64,000 bases of DNA from positions 13,757 to 77,756 of IMG/VR virus record IMGVR_UViG_3300020139_000001; one strand, 5' to 3'. Source of the DNA: a virus. The notes beneath the pieces are model-generated. The model did not search any database and was not told the DNA's origin. It was given only the letters and a program-made list of their open reading frames with translations. Positions 13,542-58,052 of the stretch are shown here, piece by piece. The stretch's first letter is position 1. Every line of letters starts with the position of its first letter. The translations under genes and the position numbers were made by a program.

Positions 13542-14943
13542 TGCCAGAGGACGAGATGCTTTTGGTGTCTACGTGGAAACACTAGGAAAATTTGTTTTCT
13601 CATCAAAGAAGGATCTCCTCCAGTTTCTACATCATTTACCTGGGCAAAGATTCGTATCGATTGTATCGAGAGCAATACCTGCAAGTGAGAGGCACGCTAC
13701 GGACGTTGAAAAAGATACACAACCTTTTACAGACCAGAACTGGGTAGTAACACATAATGGTATTATCGCAAACGACGAAACCCTAGAGAAACAATACTCC
13801 CTTACGAGAACTTCAAAAGTGGACACTGCCGTAGTACCACCACTATTACAAAAACTAGGAATCGAGGACACTCTTAAAGCACTACAAGGAAGCTTTGCGT
13901 TAACCGTCTACAAAAGGAACACAGGTACGTTGTACTTAGCAACTAACTTTATGCCTCTCTATTGGGCAGTATCCGGAGCCATGGTAATGTGGTCTAGTAT
14001 GCCTATCCCAGGCTTTCAACCTTTGGAGCCCTACTCTTATTTGACTATCAACAAAAGGAGTGACCATACGTTCAATGTAGTGTCCACAAGACTGCCTACC
14101 ACATTGGACCAATCTAGAGTCGCAGTCGTATGTAGTGGAGGAATGGATAGCGTTACTACATTGCGATTGTATCAAGTCTTAGGTTACTCACCTACCATTG
14201 TCCACTTCGACTATGGACAAGCAGCTAGCGAAGTAGAGGACTACTGCACATCAAGAATAAGTGAGATCTACGGGATACCGAAGTTAAAGCTAGAAGTATC
14301 CCAAATATTCAAACACATGAAGTCTGTCCTTACTACGGCGAAAGCTGCCGATCCAAAGTATAGGCATTGGGATATGGAAAGCACCTACTCATACGTAGGT
14401 GCAAGAAACTTGATACTAGCATCTTTAGCTATGGGCATTGCAGAAGAACTGAACATTGGAAGACTTGCTCTAGGACTGAATCTGGATGATGGAGGAGGGT
14501 ATCCAGACAACAACTCCCCCTTTGTAGACACTCTACACCAATTGAGTGCTTATGCTCTCAATTGGAACCATTACATGTACGTAGAAGCACCATTTGTACA
14601 CCTTACGAAGAAAGAGATACTCGAAGTAGCTCTAGCTATAGGATCTCCTCTACATCTCACCGCTTCGTGCTACTACCCCAAACTAGAGGGCTCACAAATT
14701 GTGTATTGTGGACAGTGCGGATGCGACAAGCTAAGGGAAGAGAGCTTTAGAGCTCTTGGTATTAAGGACCCTATCCCTTACGCTACCAACCCATCTTGGG
14801 AAGGTTGTTCAGAACTAGAGCAAACAGACTGGGTTCGGGTTAGAGAGCCCCACACAAGACTTAAGCTAGAGGAGATACCTTACCACAAGTATCTACAGCT
14901 TCGCTCAGATTTGTCAGTAGTAAACTCATTTACTACATCATAG
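13471..14943 (+). CDS. queC: Gat-QueC fusion (class II glutamine amidotransferase + preQ0 synthase)
   Basis: N-terminal MC, RGRD, QPF, HNG, DT (Ntn Gat domain); SGGMDS, FDYGQ, ARN, YPDN, SCY..CGQCGC (QueC domain). Confidence 0.92.
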   Translation: MCTLLGWYSTVPVRTPKKLLPYVDARGRDAFGVYVETLGKFVFSSKKDLLQFLHHLPGQRFVSIVSRAIPASERHATDVEKDTQPFTDQNWVVTHNGIIANDETLEKQYSLTRTSKVDTAVVPPLLQKLGIEDTLKALQGSFALTVYKRNTGTLYLATNFMPLYWAVSGAMVMWSSMPIPGFQPLEPYSYLTINKRSDHTFNVVSTRLPTTLDQSRVAVVCSGGMDSVTTLRLYQVLGYSPTIVHFDYGQAASEVEDYCTSRISEIYGIPKLKLEVSQIFKHMKSVLTTAKAADPKYRHWDMESTYSYVGARNLILASLAMGIAEELNIGRLALGLNLDDGGGYPDNNSPFVDTLHQLSAYALNWNHYMYVEAPFVHLTKKEILEVALAIGSPLHLTASCYYPKLEGSQIVYCGQCGCDKLREESFRALGIKDPIPYATNPSWEGCSELEQTDWVRVREPHTRLKLEEIPYHKYLQLRSDLSVVNSFTTS

Positions 14944-14956
14944 AAGGAGGAATGCA

Positions 14957-15316
14957 ATGATACTACGAATATTGACGTTCATATCAGTATACTGGTGTGC
15001 ACAAGCGAATATCTTGCGTAGTGTTGAGTTCGCATTAGCATTCTCAATCATAATACTTTTGAACGCAGTTCTGGGATCAACCTATTGGATCGCAAAAAGG
15101 ATGCCACACGCACTTGATGTACTTGAGGTTCCACCGCAGGTGAAGAGAGAGTTGAGAGCCTATTTGGGTCCAGCTCCTCTGCTTTGGGTAGTTTGTGCAG
15201 GTGGGATAGATGCATGCATTATCTATCTTATCTACAAAACAATACCAAACTACGCGATAGGGTACAGTATAGGTTCCGTACTCTACGTACTAGGACGTAC
15301 TGCAGCTGTTAAATAA
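14957..15316 (+). CDS. Small integral membrane protein
   Basis: 3-4 hydrophobic segments; AAGGAGG SD. Confidence 0.65.
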   Translation: MILRILTFISVYWCAQANILRSVEFALAFSIIILLNAVLGSTYWIAKRMPHALDVLEVPPQVKRELRAYLGPAPLLWVVCAGGIDACIIYLIYKTIPNYAIGYSIGSVLYVLGRTAAVK

Positions 15317-15431
15317 AATTGACGCTACTACAGCTGCAAATATCCTTCTAAGTTAAATACCACATATATTACTATAGACATCGACGAGCGCTTAGCGCTC
15401 TAAAAAAAATTTGATTCAAAGGAGGTGCGAA

Positions 15432-16043
15432 ATGTTCAGAGTCTGGCTACAGAGCGAGGGGGGCCTCCTCTGGGAAGATTTAGGCATCTTCTTAGGGGAG
15501 TTGAACGTCCTCCCTCAGTGGGCTAAGTGGAAGACAGGCCTCAAAATCAGAGGAGTATGGAGAGAAAAGATAGGAAGGCCCTTCGAGTTGCCTGCGTACT
15601 GGTACGATGCGTACGGGGGTTGGATATGGGCCTACCCCTTAGAGAACTACAAGGAGTGGGTAGACAAAGCCCTACTGGACGCAGTAGAGAAGGCATCCAA
15701 AGGGTACCAGAAGCTTTTTCTCCGTTCCAAAAGCGCTACATGGAAAGACCTGGGTTGGGTGAGAGGAGAATCTCTCTTACTGCACGAACTAGACAGGCTA
15801 GTTCGTGCAGTAAGGAGAAGGGGGGAGAAATTTCCTTCTCCTTACCGGGTGACGACGATACCCGCCTTACACCCCTTTTGGGGATGTAAAGAGATGATGA
15901 GCGTCGTAGGACGACGGAGAGAACGTATCGCCCTCTTCGGGGGGGCGCAATACGTGAAATGGCTACAGAGCGAGGCGCACAATATCGAAGTGATGAGGTA
16001 CAGGGGAGCTATGCTCCCCTCGCAGATTTGCGGTAACAATTGA
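15432..16043 (+). CDS. Hypothetical protein, paralog of 12688-13356
   Basis: GGAGGTG SD before ATG 15432; FRVWLQSE..WEDLG and LFLRSK..WKDLG duplicated domain. Confidence 0.7.
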   Translation: MFRVWLQSEGGLLWEDLGIFLGELNVLPQWAKWKTGLKIRGVWREKIGRPFELPAYWYDAYGGWIWAYPLENYKEWVDKALLDAVEKASKGYQKLFLRSKSATWKDLGWVRGESLLLHELDRLVRAVRRRGEKFPSPYRVTTIPALHPFWGCKEMMSVVGRRRERIALFGGAQYVKWLQSEAHNIEVMRYRGAMLPSQICGNN

Positions 16044-17279
16044 ATGATGATGAAATGGAAGACACTTGCACCGCAGTTAGAGAAGATCGAGAGGACGAGA
16101 ACGTTGTCTCAGAAGGAACAGCTTCTGAGACAAGTTGCGTCCGATCCGCTTGGGAGAGAAGTGTTCAAGTATACTTACTCCCCAAAGCTGAGATATTACA
16201 TCAAGTCTCCCCTACCAGAAAACTACGAGTCTGGCAAAGAGAGGCTTGATGTAGAGAGACTTTGGAGACTATATACTCAGTTGCTAGAAGAACTAGCACG
16301 CATACGCGTACGAACGATACAGATAGTCACCAAAGTCAGACAGTTCCTGTCGCAAGTTCCCCAACCATATTTAAAGTGGTGGGTCAGAATCCTCAATCGA
16401 GACCTAAGACTAGGTGTAGGAGAGGTACTCATAAAGAAGTACTTTCCTGGAGTACTTCCCGACATAGAAGTAATGAAAGCGTACCTAGTCACTCAGGTCA
16501 AGAAACTCCCACCACAAGTCTATATAGAACCAAAATATGATGGCGTGCGTCTTATCCTAATACAGGATGAGGACTCACTACGAGTATACACACGTAATGG
16601 GAGGAGGCAGGAACAGTTAGAGGATGTACTAGAAAAGTGTGGTCTTCCATTGGGAGTATATGACAGTGAGGGGTTTCTAAAAGATTGGAACACGACAACG
16701 TCTGCTCTAGTAAAGGAACCCCATAAGCTAGTCATATATGTATTCGACTATATCTCTCTGGAAGATTACAGACGAGGGAAAGGTACATCCTTACCACTCA
16801 AACGTAGGAAGAAATTGTTGGCTGAAAAGCTAAAGGGCGTACGATGCAGGAGCGTACGTCTTGCGGAGTCGTACCTCATAGACTCTACGGACGTCAACAG
16901 GATGTATGAGAGGTTCATTAAAACAGGGTATGAGGGTGCTATGATCAAAGATCCGGATTCACCGTACGTTCCGTACAGATCGACATACTGGTTGAAGCTG
17001 AAAGAAAGAGACGTTGACGTCTACAGAGTGATCGAGGTGCTACCTGGTACTGGAAAGTACCAGAATGCCCTAGGAGCGATTGTGGTTAGGGCAAAGGACG
17101 GGACTACCTTTCGAGTAGGCTCAGGGTTTACAGATAGACAGAGAGTGGAATTCTGGAGGAATCCTAACGAGATACTCGGAAGGTGTGTGGAAGTGGCCCT
17201 CTTCACTTCCGCACAAAAGATGAGTAAAGCCCCCTTCCCTACCTTCATAAGACTCCGCCCTGACGTAAGCTCCTGCTAG
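16044..17279 (+). CDS. lig: ATP-dependent DNA ligase
   Basis: EPKYDG (motif I), YVFD, EGAMIK, WLKLK, VGSGF OB fold, FPTFIRLRPD. Confidence 0.95.
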   Translation: MMMKWKTLAPQLEKIERTRTLSQKEQLLRQVASDPLGREVFKYTYSPKLRYYIKSPLPENYESGKERLDVERLWRLYTQLLEELARIRVRTIQIVTKVRQFLSQVPQPYLKWWVRILNRDLRLGVGEVLIKKYFPGVLPDIEVMKAYLVTQVKKLPPQVYIEPKYDGVRLILIQDEDSLRVYTRNGRRQEQLEDVLEKCGLPLGVYDSEGFLKDWNTTTSALVKEPHKLVIYVFDYISLEDYRRGKGTSLPLKRRKKLLAEKLKGVRCRSVRLAESYLIDSTDVNRMYERFIKTGYEGAMIKDPDSPYVPYRSTYWLKLKERDVDVYRVIEVLPGTGKYQNALGAIVVRAKDGTTFRVGSGFTDRQRVEFWRNPNEILGRCVEVALFTSAQKMSKAPFPTFIRLRPDVSSC

Positions 17280-17536
17280 TACCAGTCCTCTCGTGTGCAT
17301 GAGGAGAGAATGCTCATGTCGCACTGCCCCTTCGCGGCTTGCTGCCAGTCGCGATTGACCGAAGGCGGTCCAGGTAAAAAGGAGCCGTAGTAGTTTGCTT
17401 GTGGCTGAAGTACAATGACGGAGCCGCCACAAGTACACTGAGGTCTCCCGTGGGGGAGTGATCGTCTATACCTTGGGTATAGACCACGTCCTTAACTACT
17501 ACACTCCTCTGCACAATTCGAGGAGGACAGGTAGCA
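17274..17536 (+). ncRNA. Putative ~260-nt multi-stem structured RNA / leader
   Basis: At least 7 nested or serial stems found by eye, G-U pairs favour the + strand, closing stem covers the downstream SD. Confidence 0.6.
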
Positions 17537-17625
17537 TGAACCCCAGGACCAAAAGAATTCTGGGCATCATTGCTTACGTGTGCATTATCATAGCACGTAT
17601 AATACTAGAGATACTTCCAGCGTAA
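17536..17625 (+). CDS. 29-aa hydrophobic peptide MNPRTKRILGIIAYVCIIIARIILEILPA
   Basis: GAGGAGG SD upstream; basic N-terminus plus one TM helix; below the ORF-track size cutoff. Confidence 0.6.
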   Translation: MNPRTKRILGIIAYVCIIIARIILEILPA

Positions 17626-17693
17626 GCAAGATGCTCGAAAAAAAAGATCTTTCTATCTATAACTTTAACTTTGTAGACATCAGGCGACTAGTA

Positions 17694-17748
17694 CAAAAAA
17701 GTCTCAATATAGGAGAGCGTACAGCTCTCCTATATTGAGACTTTTTTG
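17694..17748. terminator. Bidirectional intrinsic terminator (perfect 25-bp inverted repeat)
   Basis: CAAAAAAGTCTCAATATAGGAGAGC-GTACA-reverse complement, between convergent gene blocks. Confidence 0.88.
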
Positions 17749-17764
17749 CGTAAACGATCGTACT

Positions 17765-18589
17765 CTAATACTCTGACTCTACCTCTGAAGGCTTAGCTTG
17801 TCGTAGAATCGTTACAACACTCTGTACTAGATTATCGTGTTTCTTCCTCAAGACCTCTAGTACAGGACTACCTATTATTATACGATCATAATTAAAGGTG
17901 GTGGACAGTTTGCGAGTGTCATAAGAAGAGACGTCGAGGACCATAGAAGACAGTGGCACAGTAGACGGATATACCCCTACTAGCAAGATAGCATATGTTA
18001 AGTGAATACTGGGTGTGAAAACCAAGACTAATAAGTTTGTCTTGAAGACGGGAGAACTAGCCACTGTCTTCAAGTCTGGATTCACTGTACCAACACCATA
18101 GTACGCAGTCGACCTATCACGATCCACCCTATATAGAGCCCGTGGAAACTGTCTATATTGTGGAAGACTGTAGTGCCACACTGTGAGCAAATTCAACACT
18201 CTACTATACTCGTCATCTACCAATATGAGTTCCACAGAAGAATCATACACTGCGCGTGTAGGCATATGGTATGCAGTATCGTTGAATCCTCTCCACACCA
18301 TTGTGCTCTCTACATTGATATTTTGAAATGAAATTTGTTGTATGCTAGATAAGAACCACCACCCATAAGAGTCAGCTTCTAATATCCTACCCACTATAGA
18401 GTTTTCTGGCACTTCTAAGAGAGCACAATAGAATCCATCTATAGCAGGAGTAGCTATCTCGGAGGTAACACCTAACTGGTACTCGTGGAAGGATTCCTGA
18501 GGACTACTACTAGGAGTAGCAGTACGTACTTCGCTAACATAATAGGGATCTCTTCTAAGAGAGATACTCTGAAGAATAGGAAAGTCCAT
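17765..18589 (-). CDS. Tail tube-like protein (gp19/gp48/gp54 family)
   Basis: Follows sheath; LVGVYPSTVP..STTFNYDR; similar to 30091-30765. Confidence 0.7.
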   Translation of the reverse strand: MDFPILQSISLRRDPYYVSEVRTATPSSSPQESFHEYQLGVTSEIATPAIDGFYCALLEVPENSIVGRILEADSYGWWFLSSIQQISFQNINVESTMVWRGFNDTAYHMPTRAVYDSSVELILVDDEYSRVLNLLTVWHYSLPQYRQFPRALYRVDRDRSTAYYGVGTVNPDLKTVASSPVFKTNLLVLVFTPSIHLTYAILLVGVYPSTVPLSSMVLDVSSYDTRKLSTTFNYDRIIIGSPVLEVLRKKHDNLVQSVVTILRQAKPSEVESEY

Positions 18590-18598
18590 AGCTCCTTC

Positions 18599-21112
18599 TT
18601 AGCTTACAATAAAGTTCAGCAGAATACGCTCAACCACTCTTGTAGGTTTTATGTAGACGTTCACGTGGAATGTCTTCCGAACTAGCTCGTACTCGTTTGC
18701 ACCTACCTCTACAGAGTACTCGTACAGTCCTCTCCGAGATTGTACATCAGCAAGCACTCCTTCTACAGCCACTCTTGCTCTATTCCAAGTAAAGCTATCA
18801 TTCTGTTCAAAGAGGAACTCACTTAGCGTTCTAGAGATAACCTTTCTGAGGTACAGTATCAATCTCACGATGTTGACATCAGACAACGCAGACTGCTTAC
18901 GTTGAGTAGTTAGTTGGCCGTAGACCATGTATCTCTTATTCTTGTATACTATGGGATTGACTTGGTTGAGATAGAGCAGGTCCAACTCCCCACTAGTTGC
19001 ATTGAACAGCAACTGTTCTGGGGGAGCAATTGTACCTCTCTGTGGACCTGCAGGTGCGAACCATATCTCTGCCACCATATCATTATATGGTATTACTCGT
19101 GAGAGGAAATAGGATGGAGCAAGAGTTACAACTCTACCTTCGAAGGTAGAGTATACTTTTACGAATGGAGTATAGAGAGCACAGAGCCAAGAGTTATAAG
19201 CATATGCACCATTCCTCTCTTCAATTGTCTGGTCTACGTCTATCGTTTTGGGGAGATCGAGTATAGCAAAACAATCTCCTCTAACCTCACACAATTCAAT
19301 AAGAGCATTCTTGATTGGTTTGGAGAATCCTGCATCTAGAACTATAGAGATGTCGTTATCCTCTGAATCGATAACTCTAGGATCATACAAGCCAGTAAGA
19401 GCATTAGCAAAGACTTTGTTCATAACTGAGGGATTTGCATGAATGCCATCGACGGAGATCATACAACCCTCATGTCCTCCTCCAAGTTGTAGTACCTGAC
19501 CACTAATGGCTTTTGAAGTTTGAGCATCGATCAATACGAGCTGTGACACAATCCTATCTAACATGGTAGGTGCAGAGTCAGGATCCAAAGGAACGAACTT
19601 AGTACTAGGAATTGGTACACCATCGTAGTTGTAGTAAGTGGCTATAGGATCGTAGGTAGTTCTAAGCATATTCAGCAATGGACGGTTGCAGTAAACTTGT
19701 ATGTATTTGGAGTACCTATTAACTACATCCTCTATGAAAGTGCTGTTGCCCATACCGTCAACAGCAGTGGGATCAAAGCTAACTGTAAACTTCTCTAGAT
19801 CGATAGAGGACCGTGTAAGTGGATCCTTTGATCCAACAGTGAGTTCAACATGTCCTGGCATACGCGCATCTCTAGAGAAATACACGTACAGATCGTTGTA
19901 GTATTGTCCTCTCCCTTTGGCTGCAATTATGAACACAGGATCAACATACTGTGTACCTTGTAACGTACGAGAGCCATAGCTTGTGTCTAGTACTTGTGAG
20001 GTTGTCTGAAGAGACTGGACATAGTACGTTGTAGTCGCCGTTGCCCTAATGTTGTGATCAATCTTAGTGTCTGTCTCAGGATCTAGGTACTTCTTCCTAG
20101 TTCTGGTAAGGAGGATGGGGCCCGATATGTTGACGACAATAGTAGAGGGAATAGGTATATCCACTAATATAATCACACAGTCTCCACTAGGTCCCTCTTG
20201 CCACTCTCCAGGTCCAAGTTCGTTTCCGTTGAGGAGAACTGTGACTTGTCCTTGTCCAGGAACGAATCTGTTGGACAGGTCAATCGTTGTAGGCGCAGGT
20301 ATAATGTCTCCTTCTGTAAAGGTAAATGTCTCTGTGACAAAGTGTGTTAACTGCTGATGCTCTGCAAGTGTTCTAGTAGGAGTAGCACTAAAGTAGACAG
20401 GTACGTAACGCTCGAAAGGACTACCGATTTCAAGAGTTCTAGCTTGAGGAGTAAGCTTGAATACGGCAACTACTTGTCCTGCGGTATAACTACCAGGTAA
20501 GAAAATCTCATTGGATACCGAACCTTGGCTACCAACAGGGCTCCACTGTACAGGTCCGCTACTGTCTACATATACATGGAACTCACTCTCACCTACAACA
20601 TAGTTCATGTTAGGATTAGAGAAGGTAATGGTGACGCCTTCAGGATAGTTCCGTGTTAATTGAATACTTTCGTTCGCTGCAAATAACTTTTTCTGAAATT
20701 CGAGCCCATCATAGCCGTTAACATCAGAAAATACTCTAATACAGACGATAGCATTTGCAAACGTAGCCGGTTTATCGATCCAATAGTGTGAAGGAGATGT
20801 TGGGTGTGTTAACGTACCTGCGTCTAGTAGTTCTGCGGTGTCCTCAAGTGTAGGTAAGGGACGAATCACATATAAGTTTCCACTGAGACTAAGCCAATTG
20901 AAAGCATTATACAGTGATTGTCCGTACTTCTCAAGATTGGGTGAGCCGAAGTCGTTGATGAGTTCGCTCTGAGAAGCAACAAAGGTTAATGTGTTGTCTA
21001 TACCGTAAGGGGACAGTATAGGAATGAAGCCTACTGTTCCTGGTACGGGAGTTGCAAAAAGAGACTGATCGATGATCTTAGTATATACACCAGGGGCTAT
21101 TTGTGTTGGCAT
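18599..21112 (-). CDS. Contractile tail sheath protein (gp18-like)
   Basis: APGVYTKIID, RGDCFAILD, WFAPAGPQRG, LYLNQVNPI, SALSDVNIVRL, FLFEQND. Confidence 0.95.
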   Translation of the reverse strand: MPTQIAPGVYTKIIDQSLFATPVPGTVGFIPILSPYGIDNTLTFVASQSELINDFGSPNLEKYGQSLYNAFNWLSLSGNLYVIRPLPTLEDTAELLDAGTLTHPTSPSHYWIDKPATFANAIVCIRVFSDVNGYDGLEFQKKLFAANESIQLTRNYPEGVTITFSNPNMNYVVGESEFHVYVDSSGPVQWSPVGSQGSVSNEIFLPGSYTAGQVVAVFKLTPQARTLEIGSPFERYVPVYFSATPTRTLAEHQQLTHFVTETFTFTEGDIIPAPTTIDLSNRFVPGQGQVTVLLNGNELGPGEWQEGPSGDCVIILVDIPIPSTIVVNISGPILLTRTRKKYLDPETDTKIDHNIRATATTTYYVQSLQTTSQVLDTSYGSRTLQGTQYVDPVFIIAAKGRGQYYNDLYVYFSRDARMPGHVELTVGSKDPLTRSSIDLEKFTVSFDPTAVDGMGNSTFIEDVVNRYSKYIQVYCNRPLLNMLRTTYDPIATYYNYDGVPIPSTKFVPLDPDSAPTMLDRIVSQLVLIDAQTSKAISGQVLQLGGGHEGCMISVDGIHANPSVMNKVFANALTGLYDPRVIDSEDNDISIVLDAGFSKPIKNALIELCEVRGDCFAILDLPKTIDVDQTIEERNGAYAYNSWLCALYTPFVKVYSTFEGRVVTLAPSYFLSRVIPYNDMVAEIWFAPAGPQRGTIAPPEQLLFNATSGELDLLYLNQVNPIVYKNKRYMVYGQLTTQRKQSALSDVNIVRLILYLRKVISRTLSEFLFEQNDSFTWNRARVAVEGVLADVQSRRGLYEYSVEVGANEYELVRKTFHVNVYIKPTRVVERILLNFIVS

Positions 21113-21146
21113 CTAGAGAGCACCTCCTTATGATACTTTCTGTTAT

Positions 21147-21152
21147 TTGTTC
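21147..21152 (-). promoter_or_regulatory. Candidate late promoter GAACAA upstream of sheath
   Basis: Motif recurs at unit starts (see findings). Confidence 0.5.
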
Positions 21153-21168
21153 ACTAAAGTAGTAGATA

Positions 21169-29866: not shown

Positions 29867-29870
29867 TACT

Positions 29871-30008
29871 TTACACCTCCACAGAATCGGTTGATGCTAC
29901 CTTCCAACTGACTCTAAAGAATGGGTACTTACTACCAAGCCCCCTAAACTTACTTGCATGCATCTTTCTAGTAATGAAAACAGGTGGAGAACTCAGTTGT
30001 AGGTGCAT
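29871..30008 (-). CDS. Small hypothetical protein (45 aa)
   Basis: GAGGAG SD before ATG 30008; the longer ORF-track version overlaps the tube gene. Confidence 0.4.
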   Translation of the reverse strand: MHLQLSSPPVFITRKMHASKFRGLGSKYPFFRVSWKVASTDSVEV

Positions 30009-30029
30009 ACGATTGGTGCTCCTCTTAGT

Positions 30030-30054
30030 TTGTTCACTGTTATTTCTCGAACAA
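30030..30054. promoter_or_regulatory. Back-to-back divergent GAACAA motifs
   Basis: TTGTTC 30030-30035 and GAACAA 30049-30054, exactly at the strand switch of the structural genes. Confidence 0.55.
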
Positions 30055-30090
30055 AAAACTGATGTTACCAAGAAGCTACTGAGGTGAGAT

Positions 30091-57454: not shown

Positions 57455-57907
57455 ATGTGGAAAAGAGGAATCTACAAAATCAACAAGGGGATGTTAGTGC
57501 GCCCCTCACCTCATGTGACCCTCGTGTTGATGGGAGCGCGAGAAGGTGATTGGGGAGGTGACTTAAGAATAAGATGTGGGAGACCTCCTAAAGTATACCA
57601 AAAGGAGGGAAAATGGATCATCAGGTGTAACACAGATGATACGGGAGGTTGGCTCGTAAGCGTACACACTAACATGAACGACAGATCATGGAATCGATGG
57701 TTGGAGTATGAGCGATTGGTAAAGGCTGCTCAAGAGTACAACCCTACTTGGTTCTTGTTTGCTGAGCAAATAAGTAGAGGAGGTGGTTGCTGGGCGGAAG
57801 TCACCTCCGCACCAGCTAGATATTTCCCTACTTGGAGGGGGATCATACAACCCCGAGTGGATACTTCTAAGCTAACGTACGAGGAGTCGGTTATAGAAGT
57901 ATTATAA
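57455..57907 (+). CDS. Hypothetical protein, paralog of 56045-56524
   Basis: AAGGAGG SD; DRSWNRWLEY, SRGGGCWAEV..AP, RVDTSKLT. Confidence 0.75.
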   Translation: MWKRGIYKINKGMLVRPSPHVTLVLMGAREGDWGGDLRIRCGRPPKVYQKEGKWIIRCNTDDTGGWLVSVHTNMNDRSWNRWLEYERLVKAAQEYNPTWFLFAEQISRGGGCWAEVTSAPARYFPTWRGIIQPRVDTSKLTYEESVIEVL

Positions 57908-57972
57908 CCGACTCCCCTAGCCTGCTACTGACTTTTAGCAATGTAGCAGGCTAGGGAGCCCTCCTATTTTTT
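57883..57972 (+). terminator. Tandem hairpins + T6 terminator
   Basis: 13-bp stem 57883-57915 over the stop codon, 14-bp stem 57915-57956, T-run 57967-57972. Confidence 0.7.
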
Positions 57973-58052
57973 CGCTGACGATCGAATGCTACAAGAACCA
58001 ACCAACATAGACTACACGAGACGTTCGTTCAGAACCTGAACAATTTCACGAA

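Follow-up and report, generated by a model that had tools for sequence, protein, structure and literature searches.

A non-coding inverted-repeat element between a DNA ligase gene and a predicted 29-aa membrane peptide in an uncultured hot-spring phage: a candidate translational lock

We have analyzed in silico a 64,000-nt window of viral DNA (positions 13,757 to 77,756 of the IMG/VR record IMGVR_UViG_3300020139_000001; coordinates below are those of the window), with a focus on a strongly structured non-coding element at 17280-17533 that may act as a lock on the translation of a small gene directly downstream. The entire viral record comprises 77.7 kb (completeness ~37% by CheckV), and DNA near-identical to the window is present in hot-spring and sediment metagenome runs, from which the source is taken to be an uncultured hot-spring phage. 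The element is located at the 3' end of a plus-strand block of replication and DNA-modification genes, which terminates with a Gat-QueC fusion, two unknown open reading frames (ORFs) and an ATP-dependent DNA ligase. A convergent minus-strand tail block to the right contains an 837-aa protein, identified as a T4-type tail sheath (29% identity to the sheath of phage phiR1-37), and a 274-aa ORF. The two blocks are separated by a 256-nt stretch, a 29-aa ORF, a 68-nt spacer and a bidirectional terminator. The relevant features are as follows:

16044-17279, plus strand: ATP-dependent DNA ligase (Pfam DNA_ligase_A_M and DNA_ligase_OB_2), the last long gene of the plus-strand block
17280-17306, plus strand: left arm of a long-range helix, starting 1 nt past the ligase stop, with a CU-rich anti-Shine-Dalgarno (anti-SD) sequence at 17286-17293 and an SD-mimic GAGGAG at 17301-17306
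17307-17503, plus strand: GC-rich interior domain with robust local hairpins at 17332-17354, 17357-17370, 17397-17434 and 17464-17484
17504-17533, plus strand: right arm of the helix, with a second anti-SD CUCCUC at 17504-17509 and the SD GAGGAGG at 17520-17526, ending 2 nt before the ATG
17536-17625, plus strand: 29-aa ORF (ATG at 17536, stop codon at 17623-17625), a candidate small membrane protein
17694-17748, both strands: perfect 25-bp bidirectional intrinsic terminator flanked by an A-run and a T-run, parting the plus-strand block from the minus-strand tail block

The ligase stop codon (TAG, 17277-17279) appears to be genuine, since the C-terminal Cys of the protein aligns with its relatives. 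Read-through of this stop was considered and dropped, the ligase being complete and the long ORFs intact under code 11. Given a median intergenic gap of 14 nt in the record, the 256-nt non-coding stretch between the ligase and the 29-aa ORF is conspicuous. By its GC content (0.547 vs. a record mean of 0.437, the 99.6th percentile) the element is the second-highest GC island, and the other high-GC islands checked (49576, 15780, 15443) fall inside long ORFs; it is the sole non-coding GC island of the 77.7-kb record.

The 29-aa ORF is absent from automatic gene calls. The deduced peptide begins with MNPRTKR, followed by a 20-residue hydrophobic helix (single-transmembrane), and its best 19-residue Kyte-Doolittle window (2.56) is reached by 1.9% of the comparison set (208 ATG ORFs of 24-40 aa from all six frames). 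In this phage, almost every GGAGG placed 4-10 nt before an ATG belongs to a real gene, and the SD spacing of the 29-aa ORF (9 nt) is like that of the other genes. The terminator is found 70 nt past the ORF, and the region containing it (17536-17760) folds with a z-score of -9.1. The combination of SD, intergenic position, terminator and hydrophobicity makes it likely, judging from sequence, that the ORF is a real small membrane-protein gene. As a hydrophobic ORF of less than 60 aa with an SD that is sequestered in silico, it also resembles type I toxin genes in these two respects. Nevertheless, the peptide had no match in Pfam, PHROGs or NCBIfam and no similarity to toxin families, a back-translated scan and a word-indexed protein search with it yielded no homologue, and a collection of 5.8 billion proteins contained neither a match nor the 29-aa ORF itself. 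None of the frames of the region matched a protein family. Three matches from an exhaustive phmmer search with a 55-aa frame, all to low-complexity tandem-repeat proteins, were rejected as spurious; they fall only on the part of the 55-aa frame upstream of the real peptide. One more structure overlaps the gene:

17570-17629, plus strand: imperfect hairpin (inverted repeat with 20-nt arms, 75% complementary), also present in the fold of 17536-17760

This hairpin extends over the second half of the ORF, stop codon included, and could represent a 3' stabiliser or an added constraint on the ORF sequence.

The main structural feature of the element is a helix formed in the minimum free energy (MFE) fold by 17280-17306 and 17504-17533, with pair probabilities of 0.90-0.96. 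It comprises ~25 bp in five segments (4+6+3+6+6 bp) broken by a 1x1 loop and small bulges. The original prediction, made from sequence alone, had described an outer stem at 17285-17299/17510-17528; this stem is present, and in the MFE fold it is extended to the full length of both arms. A helix scan of 25,832 record positions, pairing 27 nt with a 30-nt segment located 224 nt further downstream, ranked this duplex first (-35.6 kcal/mol, against a mean of -8.8 with a standard deviation of 3.4 and a runner-up of -26.4), and the helix is retained on folding with 440-860 nt of context. Since one arm abuts the ligase TAG and the other lies near the ATG, the base of the helix would be occupied by a ribosome terminating on the ligase. 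This flush positioning against a stop and a start codon, as well as the strand symmetry and the synteny breakpoint with a possible insertion that are described below, add to what had been noticed originally.

The SD of the 29-aa ORF is enclosed within this helix, 9 nt before the ATG. To express its occlusion quantitatively, we have computed an opening cost (the free energy required to unpair GGAGG) for 45 GGAGG+ATG starts folded together with the 256 nt upstream of each. The value obtained for the 29-aa ORF, 13.1 kcal/mol, is the highest of the 45, the other 44 ranging from 0.4 to 8.3. Thus, the claim that a ~254-nt RNA hides the ribosome-binding site of an unannotated 29-aa single-transmembrane peptide is supported in silico. 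The SD had further been proposed to choose between two partners in alternative folds. Both partners are real, as in the model the SD re-pairs with the local CUCCUC (17504-17509) when the left arm is blocked, but the implied switch is not seen: because both near-isoenergetic folds keep the SD paired, the local CUCCUC is, by the modelling, a second lock rather than an on/off switch.

The same results bear on a suggestion that the element is a riboswitch (sensing preQ0, agmatine or another ligand) or an RNA thermometer, which would open the SD in response to a signal. A large structured leader with two near-isoenergetic folds, the presence of preQ0-pathway genes (QueC) in the phage, and its hot-spring habitat would be in line with such a sensor. 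On the other hand, no family of this kind and no aptamer was matched, the conservation that defines aptamers is absent, and the SD is buried in both alternative folds. Its pairing is also nearly constant with temperature: ~80-85% across 37-80 °C in the model, with a mean unpaired probability of 0.15 at the lower and 0.22 at the upper temperature (energy model only), and the cost of 10-13 kcal/mol is far over that of zipper-type thermometers. We therefore consider a ligand- or temperature-sensing device very unlikely, and these two parts of the original prediction were not supported.

A more plausible source of SD release would be the ligase-terminating ribosome, which has the anti-SD strand within its reach (the left arm starts 1 nt after TAG). 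When its footprint is modelled by keeping the RNA unpaired to 17291, the SD opening cost of 10.1 kcal/mol at 37 °C decreases to 6.8, and that of 7.2 kcal/mol at 65 °C to 2.7; the SD then moves to CUCCUC. No sigma-70-like promoter was predicted on either strand within 17280-17760 (phage or host promoter types may differ), and the T4 late consensus TATAAATA does not occur in the element and is not enriched in the window. Since no internal promoter-like site is apparent and a strong terminator is located past the ORF, the natural transcript is expected to be a read-through product of the plus-strand operon. A candidate late motif, GTGAACAAA, is likewise not in the element. It occurs exactly twice in the window, on the minus strand (21146-21154 and 30029-30037), and both copies are found ~25-160 nt upstream of minus-strand structural operons, namely those at the sheath gene and at the divergent region 29867-30090. 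The motif can be considered a candidate late-promoter or regulatory sequence; its one-mismatch copies are not enriched.

Beyond the helix, the element as a whole is more stable than expected. RNAfold applied to 17274-17545 yielded -108.8 kcal/mol, with a z-score of -3.88 relative to dinucleotide shuffles on the plus strand, and the minus strand of the element folds about equally well (z -4.30), so that the stability over shuffled sequences anticipated by the original prediction is observed on both strands. G-U pairs are scarce on either strand (3/79 and 4/82). As both strands score alike and contain few G-U pairs, folding alone does not tell which strand is relevant. All of the originally listed stems exist, at or within 1-2 nt of where they had been placed, some as robust local hairpins and others as parts of a competing arrangement. 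The robust ones, all within the interior, are:

17332-17339/17347-17354, plus strand: hairpin TCGCGGCT/AGTCGCGA, pair probability 0.85
17357-17361/17366-17370, plus strand: hairpin GACCG/CGGTC, pair probability 0.85
17397-17405/17426-17434, plus strand: hairpin GCTTGTGGC/GCCACAAGT, pair probability 0.99
17464-17472/17476-17484, plus strand: hairpin GTCTATACC/GGTATAGAC, pair probability 1.0

Outside these four hairpins the interior has two competing arrangements. The stems CATGAG/CTCATG, AGGAG..GTAGTAGTT/AACTACTAC.CTCCT and CTCCC/GGGAG belong to the alternative fold, which at -105.4 kcal/mol is separated from the MFE (-106.9) by a gap of 1.5 kcal/mol. Folded alone, the interior (17307-17503) is only moderately unusual, with z-scores of -2.4 on the plus and -2.7 on the minus strand. 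In the predicted structure, these 197 nt would constitute at least a scaffold holding both arms together.

An interior of this kind raises the question of a stand-alone non-coding RNA (ncRNA) of ~200-250 nt, in which the terminal helix would serve as a processing stalk, as in rRNA precursors, and the interior would act in trans; SD occlusion would then be a side effect, or the peptide mRNA would be activated by cleavage. A GC island in a lower-GC hot-spring genome is a classic signature of a structural RNA gene, and the interior, larger than a lock requires, carries four hairpins with pair probabilities of at least 0.85 (z -2.4). With a predicted 25 bp, the helix exceeds the ~20 bp of an RNase III processing stalk, a length sufficient for a double-strand-specific RNase. 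An ncRNA gene nevertheless appears unlikely: no promoter of its own is predicted, the interior has two competing folds with a low MFE frequency, no Rfam family is matched even at E-values up to 10, and homologues were found neither in relatives nor in the collections searched.

Indeed, the Rfam/covariance search agrees with the original impression of an RNA of no recognised family. No match was obtained in the window at gathering scores, nor within the element at E up to 10 in a search of 17000-17900, where all of the matches fall outside it (spurious miRNA-type matches to the terminator hairpin, a match at 17816-17870 and one inside the ligase). ARAGORN detected no tRNA or tmRNA. Retron ncRNA, TnpB/IscB-type guide RNA and intron were, like read-through of the ligase stop, dropped as candidates, given a complete ligase, intact long ORFs and no Pfam domain in the neighbouring ORFs scanned. 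A second copy of the element was not found in the 77.7-kb record. Comparison with fetched loci and relatives' records by blastn and nhmmer showed no similar sequence, a covariance model run over 516 kb of loci recovered the window alone, and the phage and plasmid collections did not contain the element. Three hairpin patterns applied to IMG/VR gave 0, 0 and 8 matches, the latter attributable to chance.

The flanking genes provided only distant relatives for comparison. For the ligase, matches in IMG/VR do not exceed 30% identity, the 5.8-billion-protein search revealed a relative with 67% identity, encoded on a contig of 2,994 nt, plus a clade at 44-46%, a scan of metagenomes revealed a 45-46% clade in which other genes directly follow the ligase, and a scan of genome contigs gave one irrelevant match; searches of IMG/VR with the sheath and its 274-aa neighbour yielded no homologues. 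The nearest relatives reached share 45-46% (ligase) and 51% (sheath) identity. Whole records of two of them, G001 (IMGVR_UViG_3300005573_000071, 99 kb) and G002 (36 kb), were compared and contain no similar sequence, Rfam match or non-coding GC island. In G001, the upstream synteny is kept (Gat-QueC, unknown ORF, ligase), the sheath block, adjacent to the ligase in our phage, is 62 kb away, and a 305-aa neighbour gene and a coding ORF converge without an intervening spacer. Since the relatives' junctions lack the element and the sheath is elsewhere, the element appears to be lineage-specific and located at a synteny breakpoint. The module rearrangement relative to G001 (window 16044-21112) ends exactly at the element.

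This location, together with the strand symmetry of the structure, suggests yet another origin, namely an insertion bounded by inverted repeats and resembling a miniature inverted-repeat transposable element, which would have separated a ligase stop and a small-ORF start that had formerly been tightly coupled (TAG-TA|...|TA-GC-ATG). In that case, terminal repeats with foreign GC-rich filler would account for the structure, any effect on translation being secondary. The arms 17280-17306 and 17504-17533 are terminal inverted repeats of 27 and 30 nt that coincide precisely with the ends of the element, with TA on either side; a GC content of 0.55 vs. 0.44 suggests foreign origin; the element is not in the relatives; and the contact of the helix base with stop and start codons would be trivially accounted for. 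Yet TA is palindromic and the TA flanks are themselves base-paired within the helix, hence there is no clear target-site duplication. The element is also single-copy in the record, no further copy was found in the two relatives' records, in the 516 kb of loci, in the phage and plasmid collections or, by the three patterns, in IMG/VR, and the right arm holds the sole SD of a probably real gene. An SD of this type is used by nearly all genes of the phage, which suggests co-adaptation of arm and gene. On balance, insertion as the principal explanation is unlikely; an insertion origin and a present locking function are mutually compatible.

Natural variants offer a limited view of constraint. A near-identical population (X1/X2; 30-kb contig) differs from the window at 2 positions in 3.3 kb (15000-18298), both G>A (17344 and 17410) and both in hairpin-loop regions of the element, not in stems; with n=2, these changes may reflect either a locally elevated mutation rate or relaxed constraint. 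A ~97% variant (X3/X4, depth ~4) spans 17435-17920. In the peptide it carries the change I12V only, and near the terminator it has many changes, among them loop indels and, on the two flanks, the paired substitutions A>G (17699) and T>C (17743). These variant numbers are too small to serve as proof of constraint.

That the only two X1/X2 differences in 3.3 kb fall inside the element would also be compatible with the absence of any dedicated function, the element being a palindrome at the DNA level, a scar of recombination or what is left of a decayed gene, and the small ORF fortuitous. Its orphan status, its strand symmetry and its position at a rearrangement junction point in the same direction. 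Still, both substitutions are in loops rather than stems, no frame matches a protein family, and the phmmer matches are to low-complexity tandem-repeat proteins. Moreover, a rank-1 helix, a well-spaced SD and ATG, an ORF of transmembrane grade and a terminator are together unlikely by chance, which makes this explanation rather improbable.

Overall, the interpretation that we favour, with a probability of roughly 0.45 and thus short of even odds, is that 17280-17533 would function as a cis-acting translational lock on a small, possibly toxic membrane-peptide gene. According to this model, the 27 nt following the ligase stop would pair with the 30 nt preceding the peptide AUG, enclosing the SD, and the local CUCCUC would re-capture the SD once its first partner becomes unavailable, resulting in a double lock, so that the peptide would not be made by default from operon read-through transcripts. 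Two routes of release can be envisaged. The footprint of a ligase-terminating ribosome could extend over ~10 nt at the start of the left arm, allowing low-level ligase-coupled translation of the RNA-unfolding type. Alternatively, an endonuclease could cut the helix, which resembles an RNase III substrate, and thereby part the SD from its partner. The peptide itself would be membrane-active (toxin-, holin-accessory- or exclusion-like), and its untimely synthesis harmful.

Several observations weigh against this proposed lock. The fold is equally good on the minus strand and G-U pairs are rare, which makes a DNA-level inverted repeat equally compatible; the 197-nt interior far exceeds the need of a simple lock and is left unexplained by it; and the modelled terminating ribosome frees the SD in part only. 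Furthermore, no homologue was found, so neither covariation nor conservation supports the fold, the element is missing at both corresponding junctions of the nearest relatives, and the low-coverage ~97% variant carries a 1-nt A insertion (17478) in the most stable hairpin (17464-17484). The orphan status makes the element both interesting and unproven, its function being a matter of prediction.

A more far-reaching possibility, which we view as quite improbable, is that the element represents an unrecognised class of ~250-nt phage regulatory RNA, which would hold a stop codon next to a remote start codon and in which a double SD lock on a membrane-active peptide would be opened by a signal. 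This signal could be a ligand or protein binding to the interior, or a shunt-like hand-over of terminating ribosomes across the helix base.

One additional reading frame within the element deserves mention:

17316-17390, plus strand: possible 24-aa upstream ORF (MSHCPFAACCQ...), 9 nt past the SD-mimic GAGGAG and in the ligase frame

The ligase TAG is followed by 36 in-frame sense codons up to a second TAG (17388-17390), and this Cys-rich ORF lies among them. An open frame of such length is not unusual for GC-rich sequence and has no family match; the ORF might, at a weak guess, represent a leader peptide or a tail made by read-through, or it may have no significance and be coincidental. Elsewhere in the window, 15432-16043 holds a 203-aa ORF of unknown function, whose true start is the ATG at 15432, preceded by AAAGGAGG; this ORF forms a GC island (0.53-0.55), its predicted folding is unusually stable, and small indels of the variant population cluster within it at 15762-15791. 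The most stable 260-nt window of the record, once GC-corrected, is at 57870-57975, where a tandem pair of strong hairpins, the second followed by a T-run, comes after the ORF 57455-57907, probably as a compound terminator.

If the lock is real, a large thermophilic phage would silence a tiny membrane protein that is carried on its early operon, by means of a structure that puts stop and start codons 256 nt apart in contact. If the element is instead a stranded inverted-repeat insertion, a single insertion would have supplied a ribosome-binding site plus its own repressor.

With respect to known systems, the Correia elements of Neisseria and the RNase III sites of phages T7 and lambda are transcribed inverted repeats that form RNase III-cleaved hairpins in mRNA. 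The element shares with them a long interrupted inverted-repeat helix in an operon transcript, and cleavage would uncouple the cistrons; those elements are multi-copy or conserved in relatives, whereas ours is a single-copy orphan and its cleavage is a prediction. In phage T4, the ribosome-binding sites of e, soc, 49 and I-TevI are occluded in read-through transcripts (review PMC3014915). Both phages are myoviruses with a T4-type sheath, and in both the SD and start of a small or harmful gene are buried with an upstream strand, the long early transcripts of T4 being left untranslated. The T4 helices, however, are short and local and are opened by late promoters inside the hairpin (PMC3014915), whereas here the strands are 224 nt apart, a second lock is present, and neither TATAAATA nor another candidate promoter lies between them. 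In type I toxin mRNAs (hok, aapA1/aapA3), several anti-SDs are combined with a long-distance interaction (PMC6733600). The likeness extends to a tiny hydrophobic ORF, an SD captured by local and long-range CU-rich anti-SDs, and activation that would need processing. In those systems the long-range partner is located at the mRNA 3' end, and the toxin gene comes with a promoter of its own and an antisense RNA antitoxin, while here the partner is upstream, beside the stop of another gene, and neither an antisense promoter or antitoxin nor toxin-family similarity was found. We do not count the element among the T4-occlusion or type I toxin groups, as the searches showed neither an internal late promoter, nor an antisense RNA, nor likeness to a toxin family; a real lock would place multi-layer SD sequestration of the toxin style in a virus, without the usual antisense partner. 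A third parallel is translational coupling by RNA unfolding, as described for rpmI-rplT, MS2 coat-lysis/replicase and f1 VII-IX (PMC12548453). There, as here, the downstream ribosome-binding site pairs with sequence that the upstream ribosome must cover, and the modelled footprint lowers the opening cost accordingly, although release in our case would be partial due to the local second anti-SD. In contrast to those examples, the stop and start codons are 256 nt apart and joined only by the fold, a geometry that, should the lock be real, would be suited to comparing unfolding coupling with a hand-over of ribosomes across the helix.

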